DNA of 27,857 bases from a virus (IMGVR_UViG_2737471861_000021), one strand, 5' to 3'. Shown: positions 538-21,228, counted from the stretch's first letter. Notes: generated by a model from the sequence alone, not told the origin. Program-made: numbers and translations.

Positions 538-878
538 TGGACTATTCACAGTTAAGTGATTTTGAAATTAACAGAATGGTAGGAGACATAATTTTTAAAG
601 GCCTTTGGGCATGTAAACCGGAAACATCAGGGAATAACACCAACAAATGGTATTACGGAAATACTGATACAACTTTTGAGCCATTAAACCCTTTACCTGA
701 CTACTGCAATGATCCGAGCGCCTCATGGCCGATTATTGAGAAACACAGGATTTCTATCTTAGACCAGTTAACTGAATGGTGTGTGGATGCAAAAGACGTA
801 AGACCAATATTTGATACCAGACCTCTCCGAGCCGCCATGATTGTATTTCTCATGATGCAGGAAAATCAGAATGGCTAA
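537..878 (+). CDS. Hypothetical small phage protein (possibly DUF2591-like)
   Basis: ORF track 534..878; the ATG at 537 overlaps the upstream stop and is the likelier start. Translationally coupled within a three-gene string; family assignment is from memory only. Confidence 0.5.
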
Positions 879-1209
879 ATCAGCAGCAGAGCGCAAAGCC
901 GCTCAGAGAGCCAGACAAGCTGCATCTGGTGTGCGTAAGCTGGAAATTGTGCTTGATGCTCAGGAAATTGAAATGCTGGAGCGTAACTGTGCCACGCGTC
1001 GCCCCGGGCGTGCGCCTTACGAATTTGGTGAGTATATAGCGTTACTGATCCGCCAAGATGATGCACGCGTGCACGGGCGTATAAAATCGATCAGCAGAAA
1101 ACGTTGCGGTAAGTGCGGCGAGAGAGTTCCAGTTAATTCATGTCCGTGTAATGGTGACTCACAATGCTGGGTGACTAAAGGCTGGCATGAAACGAAATTA
1201 ATAGTGTGA
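871..1209 (+). CDS. Small basic Cys-rich (putative zinc-finger) protein; candidate regulator
   Basis: 112-aa ORF with a basic N-terminus ([15 protein letters not shown]) and a C-terminal Cys cluster ([21 protein letters not shown]). Last gene before the terminase operon; its stop codon lies inside palindrome copy 1. Confidence 0.5.
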
Positions 1210-1218
1210 CATGTCACG
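1205..1218. repeat. Palindrome TGTGACATGTCACG, copy 1 of 3
   Basis: Read directly from the sequence; overlaps the TGA stop of the 871..1209 gene. Other copies at 3506..3519 and 20739..20752. Confidence 0.7.
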
Positions 1219-1258: not shown

Positions 1259-1285
1259 GCCGCCAACTATGGCGGCTTTATTTTG
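1259..1285 (+). terminator. Rho-independent terminator-like hairpin upstream of terS
   Basis: GCCGCCAACTATGGCGGC stem-loop followed by TTTATTTTG. It lies inside the long N-terminal extension of track ORF 1250..1960, which argues that extension is not coding. Confidence 0.5.
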
Positions 1286-3432: not shown

Positions 3433-3482
3433 TCCGCTGGTGGGGATAATGTCGTTGATATCCTCTGGTGAGGATAAAACAA

Positions 3483-3507
3483 AGCCAGCTCATAGGCTGG
3501 CTGTTTG
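3483..3507. terminator. Bidirectional terminator hairpin between convergent genes
   Basis: AGCCAGC-tcatag-GCTGGCT stem-loop flanked by an A-run upstream and GTTTG downstream. Sits between terL (+) and the convergent 123-aa gene (-). Confidence 0.5.
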
Positions 3508-3519
3508 TGACATGTCACG
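3506..3519. repeat. Palindrome TGTGACATGTCACG, copy 2 of 3
   Basis: Identical 14-mer to copy 1; 4 bp beyond the stop of the minus-strand 123-aa gene and abutting the terminator hairpin. Confidence 0.7.
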
Positions 3520-3522
3520 GTG

Positions 3523-3894
3523 TTATTGCTCGCTTAACTTCTGCTTCAGCAAGTAACCTTCAAGCATCCAGATTTTGTTTACAGCATTCTGCCGGGCAAT
3601 CTTCCGACCAATTTCTGCATCAAAGTTTTCCGGGCTTGCACAGGCGCTCTCTCCGGTGACGGTGAAGCCGTTGCGCAGCACCAGGACGCAGAACGTCAGC
3701 AGAGAAAGTGATTCGTGCGGCTGGTAGTTTACCTCTCCGCCAGTATGTTTCGCTTTTATGGATTTGCCAAAGGCACCATCTTCTGCTGTGAAATATGCCT
3801 CCTGAGCAATAATGCCTTCGATATGGTCTGGCGTAACGCGCGGTGCCGTTTTGCCTTTCTCAACGATTTCTTTTTCGATTTGCTGGTCGTTCAT
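3523..3894 (-). CDS. Conserved hypothetical phage protein, reverse-oriented cargo gene (possibly N4 gp49/Sf6 gp66-like)
   Basis: 123-aa ORF on the minus strand with a strong RBS (AAGGTGAG) before its ATG. Opposite orientation to all flanking structural genes. Family guess is recollection only. Confidence 0.55.
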   Translation of the reverse strand: MNDQQIEKEIVEKGKTAPRVTPDHIEGIIAQEAYFTAEDGAFGKSIKAKHTGGEVNYQPHESLSLLTFCVLVLRNGFTVTGESACASPENFDAEIGRKIARQNAVNKIWMLEGYLLKQKLSEQ

Positions 3895-3905
3895 AATCTC
3901 ACCTT

Positions 3906-3929
3906 AAAAAAATGCCCGGCGAACCGGGC
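3906..3929 (-). terminator. Hairpin plus U-tract (minus strand) directly abutting the RBS of the 123-aa gene
   Basis: Minus-strand GCCCGG-TTCG-CCGGGC followed by TTTTTTT; the T-run ends at the RBS. Could be a terminator, attenuator or processing site. Confidence 0.4.
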
Positions 3930-4002: not shown

Positions 4003-4049
4003 GCTGTAAAAAGGGCGGTGATAGTCCTTCAAGGGAAACCATCACCGCC
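4003..4049 (-). terminator. Possible terminator hairpin downstream of the tRNA
   Basis: 9-bp stem GGCGGTGAT/ATCACCGCC with a large loop, followed on the minus strand by CTTTTTAC. About 45 nt 3' of the tRNA. Confidence 0.3.
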
Positions 4050-4092: not shown

Positions 4093-4169
4093 TGGCGTGG
4101 CATGCAGGATTCGAACCTGCGACCAACCGCTTAGAAGGCGGTTGCTCTGTCCAACTGAGCTAATGCCAC
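4093..4169 (-). tRNA. tRNA-Arg (anticodon UCU)
   Basis: Minus-strand 77-nt sequence GTGGCATTAGCTCAGTTGGACAGAGCAACCGCCTTCTAAGCGGTTGGTCGCAGGTTCGAATCCTGCATGCCACGCCA folded by hand into a cloverleaf: 7-bp acceptor stem, GCTC/GAGC D-stem, anticodon loop CUUCUAA (UCU), GCAGG-TTCGAAT-CCTGC T-arm, encoded CCA. Closely resembles E. coli argU as I recall it. Confidence 0.85.
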
Positions 4170-4596
4170 AACGCTGAGAGCACTTAGCCTGTTAAGGCAC
4201 CACACTTTGTCGCGGCTCCATAAATGCTCTCATCGTTGTACCCTCGTCTCTTCCGAGGCGTCACACCGAATCGCCGGGATGGTGAATCCCCGTGCGCGGA
4301 ATAAAACCGCTCGACTTGCACATTCCGGCTACCTGGTTCGTTTGCCCGAGCAAGGGAGGGTGCCCCTTAAACGTATCCAGACCGCTATCGGCGCATGTGC
4401 CATACGCCGTACTGCTCAAAATAAAAGCTCACTCCACCTGTTCAATTTAACGACAAGCCAGTCAGGTTAGTAACCGGAATGAACTCTTTGGTTACCTGAA
4501 AGGTAATAATTTGTGCGTTAAATGTCAACTATCTACGATAAATAAATCATATGTGGTTAAATTGGTAATAATTTAATTGCGTACGGAGTCATTGAT

Positions 4597-4817: not shown

Positions 4818-6497
4818 ATGGCTGAAACAACTAAAGAGCGATTGAACAAACAGTTCGCACAACTTGAAAGCGAGCGTCAGTCGTTCGAGCCGCACTGGCG
4901 CGAGTTGAGTGATTACATCAACCCGCGTGGTTCCCGCTTTCTGACTTCTGAGGTCAACCGTAACGATCGACGCAATACACGCATTATTGATTCGACCGGG
5001 ACTATGGCGGCGCGCACTCTCGCCAGCGGCATGATGTCAGGCATCACAAGCCCCGCGCGTCCGTGGTTTCGCCTGGCTACGCCAGATCCTGAAATGATGG
5101 ATTATGGCCCTGTTAAGTTGTGGCTTGAGGCGGTGCAGAACCGCATGAACGATATGTTCAATAAGTCGAATCTCTACCAGTCTCTTCCGCAGTTATACGG
5201 AAGCCTCGGCACATACAGCACTGGTGCAATGGCAGTGCTGGAGGATGACGAGGACATCATTCGTACAATGCCATTCCCGATAGGCAGTTACTACCTGGCT
5301 AACTCACCTCGTGGCAGTGTTGACACCTGTTTTCGCAAGTTCTCTATGACTGTTCGTCAGCTTGTTCAGGAGTTCGGGCTAAATAACGTCAGCGAATCCG
5401 TAAAAAGCATGTGGGAAAGCGGCACCTACGAGAAGTGGATCGAAGTGATGCATTCGGTTTACCCGAACATTGACCGCGATACATCGAAGCTGGATAGCAA
5501 GAACAAGCCATTCAAATCGGTTTATTACGAGGTTGGCGGCGATAACGACAAGTTGTTGCGTGAGTCCGGATTCGATGAGTTTCCAATTATGGCTCCGCGC
5601 TGGGAAGTTAACGGCGAAGATGTTTATGGATCATCATGCCCGGGTATGCTGGCGCTTGGACCTGTTAAGGCATTGCAGCTTCTCCAGAAGCGCAAGTCGC
5701 AGTTGATTGATAAAGCCACCAATCCGCCGATGGTTGCTCCGACTTCCCTCAAGAATCAGCGCGCCTCCCTTCTTCCTGGCGACATCACGTATATCGATCA
5801 GATTACTGGTCAGGATGGTTTCAGGCCTGCTTATCTGGTTAACCCCAGTACAGCAGATCTGGTGGCAGACATTCAGGACACTCGCCAAATCATTAACAGC
5901 GCCTACTTTGTCGATCTGTTCATGATGTTGCAGAACATCAATACCCGCTCGATGCCTGTTGAAGCGGTGATCGAAATGAAAGAAGAAAAACTTCTGATGT
6001 TGGGGCCGGTTCTGGAGCGTCTGAACGACGAATGTCTTAATCCTCTCATTGACCGCGCTTTCTCTATGATGGTGCGTAAAAACATGCTGCCGCCACCGCC
6101 TTACGCGATGGAAGGCATGCCCCTGAAGGTCGAATACATTTCCGTCATGGCTCAGGCGCAGAAGTCTATCGGCCTGTCCAGTCTGGCGTCCACGGTTAAC
6201 TTCATTGGTCAACTTGCGCAAGCGAAACCAGAAGCTCTCGACAAACTCAACGTTGATCAGGCGATCGATGCATTCGCTGATATGTCCGGAGTGTCTCCAA
6301 CCGTCATTGTTCCGCAGGAACAGGTTGAGCAGGCTCGCCAGCAACGGGCACAGCAACAACAGCAGCAACAAATGATGGCGATGGGGATGGCGGCGGCACA
6401 GGGTGCCAAGACGCTAAGTGAAGCTAAAACTTCGGATCCGAGTGTTTTGTCAGCTATGGCGAATGCAGTTAGTGGTCAGGGTGGGCAATCACAATGA
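4818..6497 (+). CDS. Portal / head-to-tail connector protein (T7 gp8-like)
   Basis: 559-aa ORF. The C-terminal 'QQQQQQQMMAMGMAAAQGA' tail and overall pattern resemble the T7-type connector (recollection). Positioned after terminase; stop overlaps the next start (ATGA). Confidence 0.85.
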   Translation: MAETTKERLNKQFAQLESERQSFEPHWRELSDYINPRGSRFLTSEVNRNDRRNTRIIDSTGTMAARTLASGMMSGITSPARPWFRLATPDPEMMDYGPVKLWLEAVQNRMNDMFNKSNLYQSLPQLYGSLGTYSTGAMAVLEDDEDIIRTMPFPIGSYYLANSPRGSVDTCFRKFSMTVRQLVQEFGLNNVSESVKSMWESGTYEKWIEVMHSVYPNIDRDTSKLDSKNKPFKSVYYEVGGDNDKLLRESGFDEFPIMAPRWEVNGEDVYGSSCPGMLALGPVKALQLLQKRKSQLIDKATNPPMVAPTSLKNQRASLLPGDITYIDQITGQDGFRPAYLVNPSTADLVADIQDTRQIINSAYFVDLFMMLQNINTRSMPVEAVIEMKEEKLLMLGPVLERLNDECLNPLIDRAFSMMVRKNMLPPPPYAMEGMPLKVEYISVMAQAQKSIGLSSLASTVNFIGQLAQAKPEALDKLNVDQAIDAFADMSGVSPTVIVPQEQVEQARQQRAQQQQQQQMMAMGMAAAQGAKTLSEAKTSDPSVLSAMANAVSGQGGQSQ

Positions 6498-6790
6498 CAG
6501 ATTACGAAGACGATCAACTGAAAGAAGAAAACGACCGTAAGCAACGTGACATGGCACAGCGTGAAATTGATGACATTCGCTTTGTCATGAGCAGTGAACA
6601 GGGGCGTCGAGTTGTCTGGTCGGTGCTGGAGAAAGGCCGTGTGTTTTCCGCTATCTCGCCGATGGACGCTATGGCAATGGCATTTAATGAGGGGCAACGC
6701 AATCTGGCGCTGGAACTGTTTCAGCGCGTTATGGCGCATTGCCCTGAACAGTATTTGAAGATGGCCAAAGAGGCCAGTGAACAGGAGTGA
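6494..6790 (+). CDS. Small head-assembly-associated protein, function unknown
   Basis: 98-aa acidic ORF translationally coupled to both portal and scaffold genes. Confidence 0.5.
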   Translation: MTDYEDDQLKEENDRKQRDMAQREIDDIRFVMSSEQGRRVVWSVLEKGRVFSAISPMDAMAMAFNEGQRNLALELFQRVMAHCPEQYLKMAKEASEQE

Positions 6791-10303: not shown

Positions 10304-12774
10304 TGGCTATCAGTTGGATCCAGCCCAGCTTTGCCGGTGGTGAGATTGGACCGTCGTTGTACGGTCGTATCGACATGGCGAAGTACCAGGTGGCATTGCG
10401 CAAGTGCGATAACTTTATCGTGCGGCAGTATGGCGGCGTTGAGAATCGACCTGGTACGCGTTTTGTCGGTGCCGCCAAATACCCAAATCGGAAATGCCGC
10501 CTGATCCCGTTCCAGTTCTCGACGGTTCAGACCTACGCTCTGGAGTTCGGACACCAGTACATGCGCGTTATCAAAGATGGTGCGTTGGTGCTGAACAGCA
10601 GCAATGTTATTTATGAAATTGCCACACCATATACTGAAGCCGATCTGTTCCGAATTAAATTCACGCAAAGCGCCGACGTGCTTACGCTGGTTCATCCGGC
10701 ATACCCGCCGAAAGAGTTGCGCCGCTATGCGCATGACAACTGGCAACTGGTTGATGTGGTAACGAAGAACGGGCCATTTGAAGATATCAATATTGACGAG
10801 TCAGTGACGGTTTATGCCAGCGCCAGCACCGGGACAATTACGTTAACGGCAAGCGCCTCTATTTTTGGCGCGGAGCAAGTAGGCAAATTGTTCTATCTGG
10901 AACAGCCTGCAGTGGATTTAGCACCGGTATGGGAAACCAGTAAGAGTACGTCGATTGGCGATATTCGCCGTGCAGACAGTAACTACTATCGCGCCGTTAC
11001 AGCAGGCAAAACAGGTACTTTGCGCCCTTCGCATACAGAAGGCACATCATGGGATGGCTGGGGCGGATCCGGTGATGATGATACTGGCATTGAGTGGGAG
11101 TATCTGCACAGTGGTTTTGGCATTGCCCGTATCACTGCTGCAAATGGCACTACTGCAACTGCCGAGGTAATTTCCTATATCCCTTCGCAGGTCGTTGGCG
11201 AGGATAATGCCAGCTATAAATGGGCTAAATATGCTTGGAACAGTGTTAATGGCTATCCTGGCACTGTTGTTTATTATCAACAACGTCTTTACTTCGCCGC
11301 ATCGACTGCGTTCCCTCAGACTATCTGGGCCAGCCGTACTGGGGATTATAAGGATTTTGGCAAAAGCAATCCTACGCAGGATGATGACAGAATTATCTAC
11401 ACCTATGCCGGGCGTCAGGTTAATGAGATCCGCCACCTGATTGATGTTGGTTCGCTGGTGGCGCTGACTTCCGGAGGTGAGTACGTCATCACCGGCGACC
11501 AGAACAAAGTATTAACCCCATCATCATTTGCATTCAGCTCTCAGGGATCAAATGGCTCGAGCAATGTCCCACCAATTGCCGTGGCGAATATTGCTCTGTT
11601 CGTCCAGGAGAAAGGCAGTGTTGTCCGTGATCTGGCCTACTCATTCGATGTTGACGGTTATCAGGGGAACGACCTTACTATCCTTGCCAATCATCTTTTT
11701 CAGAAGCACAGAATTGTTGACTGGTGCTTCTCGATTGTCCCTTACTCTAGTGCCTTCTGCATTCGTGATGACGGTAAATTACTGGTGATGACCTATTTGC
11801 GTGATCAGCAGGTTTTTGCATGGGCACCACAATCCAGTACCGGAAAATATGAAAGCACATGCAGTATCAGCGAAGGAAATGAAGATGCGGTGTATTTCGT
11901 CGTTAACCGAACCGTTAACGGGCAAACAGTGAGATACATCGAGAGACTGTCCAGCCGTTTATTTACCAGCGATGAAGATGCTTTCTTTGTTGATTCTGGC
12001 CTTAGCTATGATGGAAGAAATACGTCTGACAGAACGATGATCATCACTGGTGGTTCTGGTGAATGGGATTACCGCGCGGAATATACAATCAGTGTTTCTG
12101 GTGGTGCGTACTTCACCAGTAGTGATGTCGGTGCGCAACTACAGTTCCCTTATACCGGAACTGTTCCTGATACTGGCGATGAAGTGTCAAAAGAATTACG
12201 TTGCGACATTATTTCTGTAACCAGCAATACCGCTGTAGTGGTTCGTGCTAACAGGAACGTCCCGCCATCCCTCAGGAATGTGGCCACCACGAACTGGCAG
12301 ATGGCGCGCCGGACATTTGGAGGCCTGTCTCATCTTGAAGGCCAGACCGTAAACATTCTCTCTGATGCGAACGTGGAACCACAGAAAGTGGTTTCCGGAG
12401 GTGCCGTCACGCTGGAATCTCCGGGGGCTGTAGTGCACATCGGCCTGCCAATAACTGCTGAATTCGAAACACTGGATATCAACATTAACGGACAGGAAAC
12501 GCTGCTGGACAAAAAACAGGTGATCCCCTCCGTTACTCTGGTTGTGAATGCCAGTCGCGGCATCTGGGCGACTACGCCCGGCGGTAAATGGTACGAATAT
12601 CCACAGCGTGAATTCGAGTTCTACGATGATCCTGTTGATGATGCTACCGGAAAAGTAGAAGTGAAACTGGACAGTAACTGGGGCAAAAACGGACGTGTAA
12701 AAATCCGTCAGCTTGATCCGTTGCCGCTGTCTGTTCTTGCCGTTATTCCTCGCCTTACTGTTGGGGGATTCTGA
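10303..12774 (+). CDS. Tail tubular protein B / nozzle (T7 gp12-like)
   Basis: 823-aa ORF after the adaptor gene; size and order match a podovirus nozzle protein. Confidence 0.55.
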   Translation: MAISWIQPSFAGGEIGPSLYGRIDMAKYQVALRKCDNFIVRQYGGVENRPGTRFVGAAKYPNRKCRLIPFQFSTVQTYALEFGHQYMRVIKDGALVLNSSNVIYEIATPYTEADLFRIKFTQSADVLTLVHPAYPPKELRRYAHDNWQLVDVVTKNGPFEDINIDESVTVYASASTGTITLTASASIFGAEQVGKLFYLEQPAVDLAPVWETSKSTSIGDIRRADSNYYRAVTAGKTGTLRPSHTEGTSWDGWGGSGDDDTGIEWEYLHSGFGIARITAANGTTATAEVISYIPSQVVGEDNASYKWAKYAWNSVNGYPGTVVYYQQRLYFAASTAFPQTIWASRTGDYKDFGKSNPTQDDDRIIYTYAGRQVNEIRHLIDVGSLVALTSGGEYVITGDQNKVLTPSSFAFSSQGSNGSSNVPPIAVANIALFVQEKGSVVRDLAYSFDVDGYQGNDLTILANHLFQKHRIVDWCFSIVPYSSAFCIRDDGKLLVMTYLRDQQVFAWAPQSSTGKYESTCSISEGNEDAVYFVVNRTVNGQTVRYIERLSSRLFTSDEDAFFVDSGLSYDGRNTSDRTMIITGGSGEWDYRAEYTISVSGGAYFTSSDVGAQLQFPYTGTVPDTGDEVSKELRCDIISVTSNTAVVVRANRNVPPSLRNVATTNWQMARRTFGGLSHLEGQTVNILSDANVEPQKVVSGGAVTLESPGAVVHIGLPITAEFETLDININGQETLLDKKQVIPSVTLVVNASRGIWATTPGGKWYEYPQREFEFYDDPVDDATGKVEVKLDSNWGKNGRVKIRQLDPLPLSVLAVIPRLTVGGF

Positions 12775-13238
12775 TGATCGATGTTCAAATTATTCCCGCA
12801 ACCGAAGAGCATCTTCAGATGATTTTGCCGGATGTTCGTCAGGCTGATATTGACGAACTGTATGCGGTATCGCTGATGACTACCGAAGATGCGCTGCGTG
12901 TTGGTCTTCGCACTGCGACTATGGCCTGGTCAGGGTTCGCGAACGGAGAACTGGTAACCATGTTTGGTGTATCTCCGGCGTCAATGATCGGTGGCAATGG
13001 TACGCCCTGGCTGGTAGGAACCAGCCGTATTGAAAAATATCAGAAGACATTTCTTCGCCACTGCCGCCCTGTATTGCAGCAGATGCTGGCAGTTTATCCG
13101 CGCCTGGAAAACTACGTCGACGAGCGAAACCATGTTGCCAAAGCATGGCTGCACTGGCTTGGATTCAGGCTTGAAGAAGCCGCGCCTTATGGTGCTCTTG
13201 GTCTTAATTTCCACAGATTTCACATGGAGAGAAAATAA
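12774..13238 (+). CDS. Virion-associated protein, function unknown
   Basis: 154-aa ORF translationally coupled (TGATG) to the nozzle gene. Confidence 0.45.
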   Translation: MIDVQIIPATEEHLQMILPDVRQADIDELYAVSLMTTEDALRVGLRTATMAWSGFANGELVTMFGVSPASMIGGNGTPWLVGTSRIEKYQKTFLRHCRPVLQQMLAVYPRLENYVDERNHVAKAWLHWLGFRLEEAAPYGALGLNFHRFHMERK

Positions 13239-20591: not shown

Positions 20592-20732
20592 ATGATTGCT
20601 TTTATTCTTGTTGTATTTGTGCTTGTTGCCCTTGGCGTTATGAATCGTAAATGTATCATTGAAGACGGTGAATTTGCTGTAGCAGTTGTTTTGATATTAT
20701 CTGGTGTAGCAGGGTACATAGGTTTGTCATAG
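20592..20732 (+). CDS. Small hydrophobic membrane protein (46 aa)
   Basis: Not in the ORF track (too short). ATG at 20592, nine nt after the upstream stop with an AAGGATGAG RBS. Translation MIAFILVVFVLVALGVMNRKCIIEDGEFAVAVVLILSGVAGYIGLS has two predicted TM segments. Confidence 0.4.
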   Translation: MIAFILVVFVLVALGVMNRKCIIEDGEFAVAVVLILSGVAGYIGLS

Positions 20733-20738
20733 CTTGAG

Positions 20739-20752
20739 TGTGACATGTCACA
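20739..20752. repeat. Palindrome TGTGACATGTCACA, copy 3 of 3 (perfect 14-bp palindrome)
   Basis: Seen directly; lies between the small membrane ORF stop and the GC hairpin. Confidence 0.7.
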
Positions 20753-20768
20753 GGCCGCTTTCGCGGCC
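20753..20768. terminator. GC-rich hairpin between convergent transcription units
   Basis: GGCCGC-TTTC-GCGGCC stem-loop between the + strand core operon and the minus-strand small gene; U-tract is weak. Confidence 0.35.
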
Positions 20769-20775
20769 CTTAAAT

Positions 20776-21033
20776 TTACCGGATTTGTTTTCGTAATTGT
20801 TCGGCACAATAGTCGAGATGTGTTTGCAGATCCTGCATAGACATCTGTGAGCTGGTGACGTAGTTAATCAGTGCAGTCAGTTCGGCAAGTGGGCCATCGA
20901 CATTAAATCCATCCTTATCGAGATCCCGGAGTAATTTCATCAAGTGCGATCCCTCCACCAGTGACCTGACGCCTCCCGGCGTGTGAATCCTTTCGGTAAA
21001 TCCGTCTTCCAGTGGATAGTGATACTGCTGCAT
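20776..21033 (-). CDS. Small SOS-regulated protein of unknown function (85 aa), reverse-oriented inside the tail module
   Basis: Internal ATG of track ORF 20776..21156 with a GGAGAA RBS. A LexA box lies 22-37 nt upstream of this start. Translation MQQYHYPLEDGFTERIHTPGGVRSLVEGSHLMKLLRDLDKDGFNVDGPLAELTALINYVTSSQMSMQDLQTHLDYCAEQLRKQIR. Confidence 0.5.
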   Translation of the reverse strand: MQQYHYPLEDGFTERIHTPGGVRSLVEGSHLMKLLRDLDKDGFNVDGPLAELTALINYVTSSQMSMQDLQTHLDYCAEQLRKQIR

Positions 21034-21054
21034 CTTATCTTCTCCATGCAATAA

Positions 21055-21070
21055 CTGTATATTTATACAG
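21055..21070 (-). promoter_or_regulatory. LexA (SOS) box
   Basis: CTGTATATTTATACAG is a perfect CTGT-N8-ACAG with an AT-rich spacer. The extended 20-mer AACTGTATATTTATACAGTA closely matches the E. coli consensus TACTGTATATATATACAGTA. It sits just upstream of the minus-strand small gene. Confidence 0.7.
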
Positions 21071-21228
21071 TAGCAAATAATTTGTTTGCTATCCAGCACG
21101 TTTTGCAAATTACCCGAAAGGTAATATCTATTCATATTCACAGTCTTTCTATCCATATGTGGTTTTTCAGGTAATAGAATAACCAGATATGCGGCGCAAC
21201 GGGTGCTGCGACTATCTGGAGATTTAAC

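Follow-up and report, generated by a model that had tools for sequence, protein, structure and literature searches.

The window, by which we mean the whole 27,857-nucleotide stretch of DNA that was analysed, is an epsilon15-like (Uetakevirus) prophage, ~95% identical to phiV10, PAS61, TL-2011b and ZX5 and ~80% identical to epsilon15 and SPC32H. Near its left end lies a homologue of epsilon15 gp49 / PhiV10p55, the last gene of the early-right operon, placed directly before terS, and across the stop codon of this gene runs the first of three copies of a short palindrome (Table 1). An exact-match scan recovers the 13-mer TGTGACATGTCAC at 1205-1217, 3506-3518 and 20739-20751, as the first-pass annotation had reported, with copy 3 matched on the minus strand too because its 14-mer is a perfect palindrome. 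Comparison of the flanks finds nothing common to the three copies beyond the 14 bp, and the functional core is GTGAC-N2-GTCAC. The annotated placement at gene 3’ ends holds for every copy by ORF position: site 1 overlaps a stop codon, site 2 ends 3 nt short of the stop codon of ORF 3523-3894 on the minus strand, and site 3 begins 6 nt past the stop of a 46-aa membrane ORF (20592-20732). Copies 2 and 3 do abut GC-rich hairpins, as was also noted at that stage.

Table 1. Palindrome copies in the window and the gene, terminator and hairpins that adjoin them
Feature	Position	Strand	Sequence	Context
Gene for the proposed binding protein	871..1209	+		epsilon15 gp49 / PhiV10p55 family, PHROG 536; 112 aa
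Site 1	1205..1218		TGTGACATGTCACG, core GTGAC-AT-GTCAC at 1206-1217	On the TGA stop (1207-1209) of the gp49-family ORF 871-1209
Intrinsic terminator	1259..1285	+	Stem-loop 1259-1276 plus TTTATTTTG	Early/late junction, 40 nt downstream of site 1; from terminator scan
Post-terL hairpin 3483-3502	3475..3502	-	T-tract TTTGTTTT on the minus strand only	On the plus strand, GTTT and then site 2
Site 2	3506..3519		TGTGACATGTCACG	Between the post-terL hairpin and the stop of the minus-strand cargo gene
Site 3	20739..20752		TGTGACATGTCACA, perfect 14-bp palindrome	Between the last structural-operon gene and the hairpin, ahead of the convergent ant-like gene
Hairpin	20753..20768	+	GGCCGCTTTCGCGGCC	Directly abuts site 3; terminator of the structural operon; clearer T-tract in relatives

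The palindrome is real, conserved and non-random. The 13-mer has no match in 100 dinucleotide-preserving shuffles of the window, and from the window’s own half-site counts (22 GTGAC, 22 GTCAC) only 0.017 copies of GTGAC-N2-GTCAC are expected, bearing out the earlier view that three copies are unlikely by chance. Degenerate versions behave differently: those with one mismatch occur at chance frequency only, and a window scan allowing up to three mismatches adds just two matches, at 6545 and 22243, which is chance level. The first of these (CGTGACATGGCACA, 6545-6558) differs at two positions and falls within ORF 6494-6790; it is kept in phiV10, PAS61 and TL-2011b, has one half-site broken and is probably just coding sequence.

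The palindrome is kept across relatives rather than being absent from the homologous positions in related phages. All three sites are found at homologous positions in phiV10, PAS61, epsilon15, SPC32H and BUCT554, though the flanks have diverged to ~80% identity; Kp4865-1 retains sites 1 and 2, while TL-2011b retains site 1 and site 3, the latter beside a different upstream insert, and lacks site 2. Both in a five-phage alignment of the site 2 region (A3) and in another of the site 3 region (A4) the palindrome is the longest invariant block, and in A4 it is invariant even when TL-2011b with its different upstream genes is included. Flanks, spacers and hairpin stems vary in these alignments, the stems showing compensatory changes while the palindrome remains invariant. 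Comparison of the sequences thus shows the motif to be under strong purifying selection at three fixed positions. Relatives with a canonical bidirectional post-terL terminator (T-tracts on both sides) lack the palindrome. Epsilon15-like prophages with the gene and site 1 occur in 637 of the 5,426 complete E. coli genomes; in E. coli PF9285 (NZ_CP038791.1, 1506275-1506734) the region that contains both is 100% identical.

The three sites of the window all stand where a transcription unit ends. After the last early gene comes site 1, with a terminator, a repressor operator and terS beyond it; site 2 is on the far side of the post-terL hairpin, and site 3 comes after the last structural gene. The terminator hairpin beyond site 1 has the same form in epsilon15 and SPC32H, there 23 nt after the site. 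The post-terL hairpin, read on the minus strand, is preceded by the palindrome and followed by its T-tract, and on the plus strand has no U-tract; at site 3 the minus strand, which carries the ant transcript, has the palindrome instead of a U-tract after the hairpin. Adjacency to terminators could be incidental, since intergenic space is scarce. None of the window sites lies at a recognisable promoter. The GTGACA hexamer of site 1 can be read as the -35 element of a late promoter (GTGACA-18-CATGAT, 9 of 12 positions), which was rejected: such matches occur at background frequency (4 found against 4.4 expected), the geometry relative to the hairpin is not conserved in epsilon15, and the arrangement is absent at copies 2 and 3. 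An operator of the epsilon15-type prophage repressor was likewise discarded, as the annotated epsilon15 operators have a different sequence (ATTACC-N5-GGTAAT). Nor is copy 1 a cos or pac site; the phiV10 record starts within it, but this start is not a physical genome end because the depositors merely cut after the last gene’s stop codon.

Homologues of the Cys-rich protein encoded at 871-1209 are detected by tblastn in otherwise unrelated phages of Enterobacterales, Vibrio and Aeromonas, including Pectobacterium myovirus ZF40 (~65% identity), Yersinia P2-like phages (~40%), N15/phiKO2-like phage-plasmids (~35%) and Vibrio/Aeromonas phages (~30%), and the palindrome accompanies them. ZF40 carries the identical 14-mer three times, with one copy directly after the homologue’s stop codon. 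The Yersinia P2-like phage has TGTGACGCGTCACA on the homologue’s stop codon, and phiKO2 has GTGACTGGTCAC three times, again with one copy on the homologue’s stop codon. An earlier scan for related loci with a mixed alignment (A1) returned near-identical relatives only, and ~190 further loci were gathered from viral contigs with distant family members as queries. In this broader collection GTGAC-N2-GTCAC lies at the gene’s 3’ end in 189 of 204 family genes, and in 184 of the 204 the offset is identical, the TGA stop of the gene being the TGA of the first half-site. With proteins clustered at 70% identity, the 3’-end site holds in five clusters, including the four largest; the five are 35–65% identical to each other and belong to unrelated genomes, those of epsilon15-like podoviruses, the myovirus ZF40, and Yersinia P2-like and N15/phiKO2-like phages.

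The spacing between the half-sites is strict. Three large groups contain 131, 58 and 108 sites with 2-bp spacing against ~1 expected per group, spacings of 0, 1 and 3–8 yield 0–3 sites each and the everted arrangement none, which shows, for these sequences, that the 2-bp spacing alone is enriched. The two central bases are specific to the clade, being AT in ZF40 and the epsilon15-like phages, GC in the Yersinia group and TG among the N15-like members, although in BUCT554 they differ within one genome, and inspection by eye of the β-strand residues against the centre dinucleotide gave no clear rule. Viral contigs contain at least 80 loci with TGTGACATGTCACG; 41 of the 80 matches listed are in gp49-family or epsilon15-like contexts, and among the matches listed several other loci have flanks in common with phage types in which the gene is present at another place on the contig. 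Phage lambda, which lacks the gene, has no site with this spacing. The coupling has exceptions: five small clades (Vibrio K303, L227, L234, L302 and L145) have no site at the gene’s own stop, most of them having sites nearby, and a distant Aeromonas homologue (30% identical) has no site within 8.9 kb. Taken across unrelated phages, co-occurrence of the sequences shows the motif to be genetically coupled to the gp49 family, usually sharing the gene’s stop codon.

Away from the stop codon of the family gene, the sites of other phages fall within or beside control genes. A site lies inside a YdaT/cII-like gene, always in the frame that encodes D-M-S, in ZF40 and at loci L226, L227 and L234, and on the TGA stop of YdaS/cro-like genes at L225 and L236. 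In phages of the L271 type the site, GTGACATGTCAC, covers codons 2–5 of a Phage_antitermQ gene (Pfam E = 1.5e-48), suggesting direct control of Q; in L271 itself, a lambdoid phage type, it occupies ~1238-1253 of the minus-strand Q gene 825-1253 (MRDMSQVLERW), and the family gene lies ~12 kb away on the opposite strand. In phiKO2 sites are found inside repA, where the repA operon ends and the anti-repressor operon follows, and 12 nt before the ATG of gp46. In Vibrio K303 the motif lies 19 nt before two ATGs, one of which is that of terS. The Yersinia P2-like phage has a single site, on the gene’s own stop; a terminator 57 nt later ends the early operon, and the late genes beyond are antisense. 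As in the window, there is no recognisable promoter at the sites examined in other phages, and terminators adjoin sites.

The protein encoded at 871-1209 is labelled ‘hypothetical protein’ by the NCBI pipeline and matches PHROG 536 (‘transcriptional regulator’, E = 1.5e-54), a family that forms 244 clusters (50% identity) in a set of 1.84 billion representatives. Searches of Pfam and NCBIfam give no match reaching cut-off for the family, including to any curated ribbon-helix-helix (RHH) model, and two faint matches fall below threshold, one of a Vibrio homologue to RepB-RCR_reg (E = 0.034) and one to PRK11675 ‘LexA regulated protein’ (E = 0.051). Neither the protein nor a profile brought up a meaningful match when searched against PDB sequences. 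An AlphaFold2 model built from a 32-sequence alignment (mean pLDDT 83.5) has a strand-helix-helix topology, with a basic, arginine-rich N-terminal helix (residues 5–18), an extended segment (19–29), helices at 30–42 and 52–74, and a C-terminal cluster of cysteines (C79, C82, C91/C93 and C99, of which C79, C82 and C99 are invariant or nearly so) that is a probable zinc site. An N-terminal strand followed by two helices, with dimerisation giving a two-stranded sheet, is the arrangement that defines the RHH fold, and the protein is accordingly predicted to adopt this DNA-binding fold. Literature searches on the motif, the gene tags, PHROG 536, epsilon15 gp49 and SPC32H found nothing relevant.

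A cognate operator is the best-supported reading in view of the coupling between motif and gene, the strictness of the spacing and the predicted RHH fold, and given the co-occurrence and the fold prediction the motif is probably the binding site of the protein encoded at 871-1209. To the whole reading, in which the palindromes are operators of this protein and serve as roadblocks or insulators of transcription, we assign a probability of roughly 0.5. Each palindrome would be occupied by a single dimer or by a pair of dimers on two inverted 7-bp half-sites, and the bound protein would then act as a roadblock or insulator on elongating RNA polymerase; we infer action on the elongating enzyme because no site is at a promoter and all are within transcribed stretches or where units end. 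In the prophage this would reinforce the boundaries between the early operon, terS-terL, the minus-strand cargo gene, the structural operon and ant, especially in the directions where the adjacent hairpins lack a U-tract. The copy on the protein’s own stop codon may in addition provide negative feedback by truncating its own mRNA, as LacI is reported to do when bound at O3, which overlaps the end of lacI so that the blocked mRNA lacks a stop. RHH proteins are typically repressors, the sites lie within or at the ends of transcribed regions, and read-through in the P2-like phage is undesirable, and for these reasons the roadblock or insulator is favoured as the mechanism; taken specifically it is tentative, at a little under even odds. 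One hindrance is that late genes without an apparent sigma-70-like promoter may depend on read-through, which a roadblock would itself impede.

A number of small RHH repressors (P22 Arc/Mnt, CopG, omega of pSM19035, ParG) resemble the proposed pair in predicted fold, in protein size and in having a palindromic target. The 14-mer can even be read as two inverted 7-bp TGTCACA units, reminiscent of the WATCACW heptads recognised by omega. These proteins, however, act at promoters or centromeres, whereas the palindrome has no recognisable promoter and one of its sites lies on the gene’s own stop, and the gp49-family protein has an extra Cys-rich C-terminal module. Roadblock repression offers a second analogy, as the operators used by LacI (O3/O2), PurR (in purB) and CcpA or CodY (intragenic) are likewise within or at the 3’ end of transcription units. 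This analogy, including that of the own-stop site to LacI O3, is one of placement alone. In kind, then, the palindrome and the protein as modelled are a small RHH regulator with a palindromic operator, differing from the known examples in the operon-end and own-stop operators, in the Cys-rich module and in the wide distribution of the gene-plus-site cassette.

The first-pass annotation had pointed out a resemblance to CRP sites that falls short of a match. This is confirmed: the TGTGA and TCACA pentamers are common to both, but they are separated by 4 bp in the palindrome against 6 bp in a CRP/FNR-type site (TGTGA-N6-TCACA), which was rejected on this ground. The comparison is irrelevant because the spacing is wrong, and the palindrome core moreover extends to GTGAC/GTCAC and tracks a phage gene, not host catabolite control. 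A closer look-alike is matS, considered below.

The main rival to the operator-roadblock reading is late-gene antitermination, in which the gp49-family protein would join RNA polymerase at the palindromes, as Q does at its binding element, and polymerase from the early-right operon would in this way get past the pre-terS terminator and cross the junctions into the later plus-strand units. Its appeal comes from gene order. The gene stands where lambdoid phages have Q, last among the early genes and immediately ahead of terS; no Q homologue is present in epsilon15-like genomes, and the succession of gene, site, terminator and terS parallels the QBE-pR’-tR’ region of lambda, where the regulator is likewise the last early gene and is followed by a DNA site, a terminator and the packaging genes. 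There is also no apparent sigma-70-like promoter between the terminator and terS or ahead of the portal operon, and on the plus strand a site precedes each of the three late units. The parallel weakens on closer comparison, as the gp49 family has neither homology to Q nor a conserved promoter or pause element at the site. A Q-type module in the strict sense was rejected, there being no Q-family protein here (the protein has no Phage_antitermQ or other Pfam match) and the family elsewhere coexisting with true Q genes; ZF40, phiKO2 and the L271-type phage all carry their own Q beside it. Polymerase that passed the single site of the Yersinia P2-like phage would enter the portal and terminase genes in antisense. 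The promoter-like match at site 1, being at chance frequency and without conserved spacing in epsilon15, does not help this explanation, and the portal and tailspike units share a conserved upstream motif of their own, which suggests separate promoters. Finally, we know of no RHH protein that acts as an antiterminator. On balance we regard antitermination as unlikely.

Somewhat less probable again is a DNA site with a role outside transcription, either as a junction for module exchange or as a matS-like site through which host MatP or a phage protein would act in organisation, segregation or packaging. Alignment of relatives, as envisaged in the first-pass annotation, does place variable elements at the palindrome. 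Site 2 is the boundary between a conserved segment comprising terL and its hairpin and the variable minus-strand cargo genes, which begin exactly at its right edge. Insert slots lie beside the other two sites as well: at site 3 phiV10 has Bro-N and TL-2011b has an arc/ant plus toxin-antitoxin block, and at site 1 both BUCT554 and Kp4865-1 have a LexA-box gene. A junction nevertheless leaves unexplained the sites of other phages that lie inside conserved essential or regulatory genes (YdaT/cII-like, repA, Q codons 2–5); a repeat of 12–14 bp is also short for homologous exchange, and three palindromic copies would invite rearrangements.

The matS-like variant draws on identical half-sites, on the presence of MatP-matS among the top structural matches of the predicted model, a likeness confined to the RHH fold, and on the hosts of the phages that carry the family (Enterobacterales, Vibrio and Aeromonas). 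The 13-bp matS consensus is GTGACRNYGTCAC (GTGAC-RNY-GTCAC), with a 3-bp spacer (PMC6907758). The palindrome spacer is 2 bp in all copies, one base shorter, and in ~3.3 Mb of related loci the 3-bp spacing is essentially absent, occurring once against 302 sites with 2 bp. There is no sequence relationship between the proteins either, as hhalign of the family alignment against E. coli MatP, the sequence of which was verified against 4d8j, gives a probability of 0.09%; membership of the matS/MatP system was rejected on these two grounds. MatP has a four-helix bundle and a coiled coil where the phage protein has its C-terminal Cys cluster, and matS organises a chromosomal domain whereas the palindrome belongs to phage operons. 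Most of these phages, moreover, integrate in the chromosome and lack a partner partition ATPase.

We consider it very unlikely that the element acts as RNA, its transcript forming a small hairpin for a protein or RNase that controls translation, 3’-end stability or processing. Some sites in other phages do fall in translation-initiation regions (phiKO2 gp46, Vibrio K303, Q-gene codons 2–5), the window copies are in 3’ UTRs beside terminator hairpins, and the protein’s N-terminal helix is rich in arginine. The palindrome, though, has a folding energy of -2.9 kcal/mol, which does not stand out from shuffles (z = -0.49), and having no T-tract as well it was also rejected as an intrinsic terminator, being merely beside the true terminator hairpins. 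Both arms are invariant, with no compensatory changes, across clades with ~35% protein identity, and such invariance without covariation points to base-specific recognition of the duplex, in keeping with a predicted fold that binds DNA. Nor is there a start codon near site 2, which on one strand is downstream of a hairpin and on the other belongs to a 3’ UTR, and Rfam covariance models at gathering score find no match at the palindrome, giving only a tRNA-Arg in the window. The first-pass annotation had listed a binding site for a phage regulator, an RNA element and a module junction as the possible roles; the first of these is supported, the regulator likely being the Cys-rich gene at copy 1, the second is weak, and the third fails at the intragenic sites. 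As to chance or passive hitch-hiking, the small copy number per genome might suggest it, but the absence of the palindrome from all shuffles, its invariance at three positions across ~80% identical phages and its recurrence with the same gene family in unrelated phages leave that explanation with a negligible probability.

Through the comparison of genomes, a protein known only as ‘hypothetical’ and a palindrome without explanation become a specific, putative and testable regulator-operator pair. The pair is found again in podoviruses and myoviruses as well as in P2-like phages and N15-like phage-plasmids, the hosts being gut and marine bacteria, and its sites in other phages fall on key control genes (cro/cII-like, Q, repA and the anti-repressor operon). 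Operators at operon ends and on the regulator’s own stop codon are unusual. Should the sites indeed act on elongating polymerase, they would constitute a compact natural insulator or switch, useful in synthetic biology and for understanding the timing of prophage genes. The single base that separates the motif from matS also makes it a clean system in which to learn how spacing sets RHH specificity. More speculatively, and rather doubtfully, gp49/PHROG 536 may represent an unrecognised class of sequence-specific phage elongation regulators that combine an RHH domain with a Cys cluster and wall off or open unit boundaries, sharing the half-sites of matS at an orthogonal spacing; in epsilon15-like phages this might be the missing early-to-late switch. 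Late-gene control of epsilon15-like prophages appears undescribed, our search of the literature having found nothing on it.

Several other elements of the window accompany the late units. The plus-strand late units terS, portal operon and tailspike each have at their 5’ end a palindrome of the form TTACC-N5-GGTAA, the type annotated as epsilon15 repressor operators (1296-1310, 4492-4506 and 21110-21124, respectively), so that the prophage repressor may act directly on late units. A longer motif, ATATGTGGTT-N5-GGTAATA, is present exactly twice (0.06 expected), at 4549-4570, 48 nt upstream of the first portal-operon gene, and at 21155-21176, 74 nt upstream of the tailspike gene. The portal-operon copy sits in a ~75-bp block that is identical between E. 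coli and Salmonella relatives, and the motif may be a late promoter or leader element.

The remaining observations concern the minus strand and the insert slots. The cargo slot at 3520-3900 holds the minus-strand gene 3523-3894, of the Sf6 gp66 / N4 gp49 family, and among 80 close relatives it is occupied by at least six different minus-strand genes, all beginning at the edge of site 2; in a few relatives site 2 is point-mutated (GTGATATGTCAC, GTGACATGCCAC). Between the cargo gene and the portal operon lie a tRNA-Arg gene (anticodon TCT, 4093-4169, minus strand) and minus-strand terminator-like hairpins at 3914-3929 and 4014-4049. The ant-like gene 20776-21156, the homologue of which is annotated as an anti-repressor in SPC32H, has a LexA-box-like sequence (CTGT-N8-ACAG; TACTGTATATTTATACAGTA at 21056-21075) in its promoter region. 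In BUCT554 (Enterobacter; L201, 7860-8259) and Kp4865-1 (Klebsiella; L202, ~12709-12790) the interval from site 1 to terS contains an inserted small gene whose strong promoter is overlapped by a LexA box; the insert takes the place of the terminator seen in the window.
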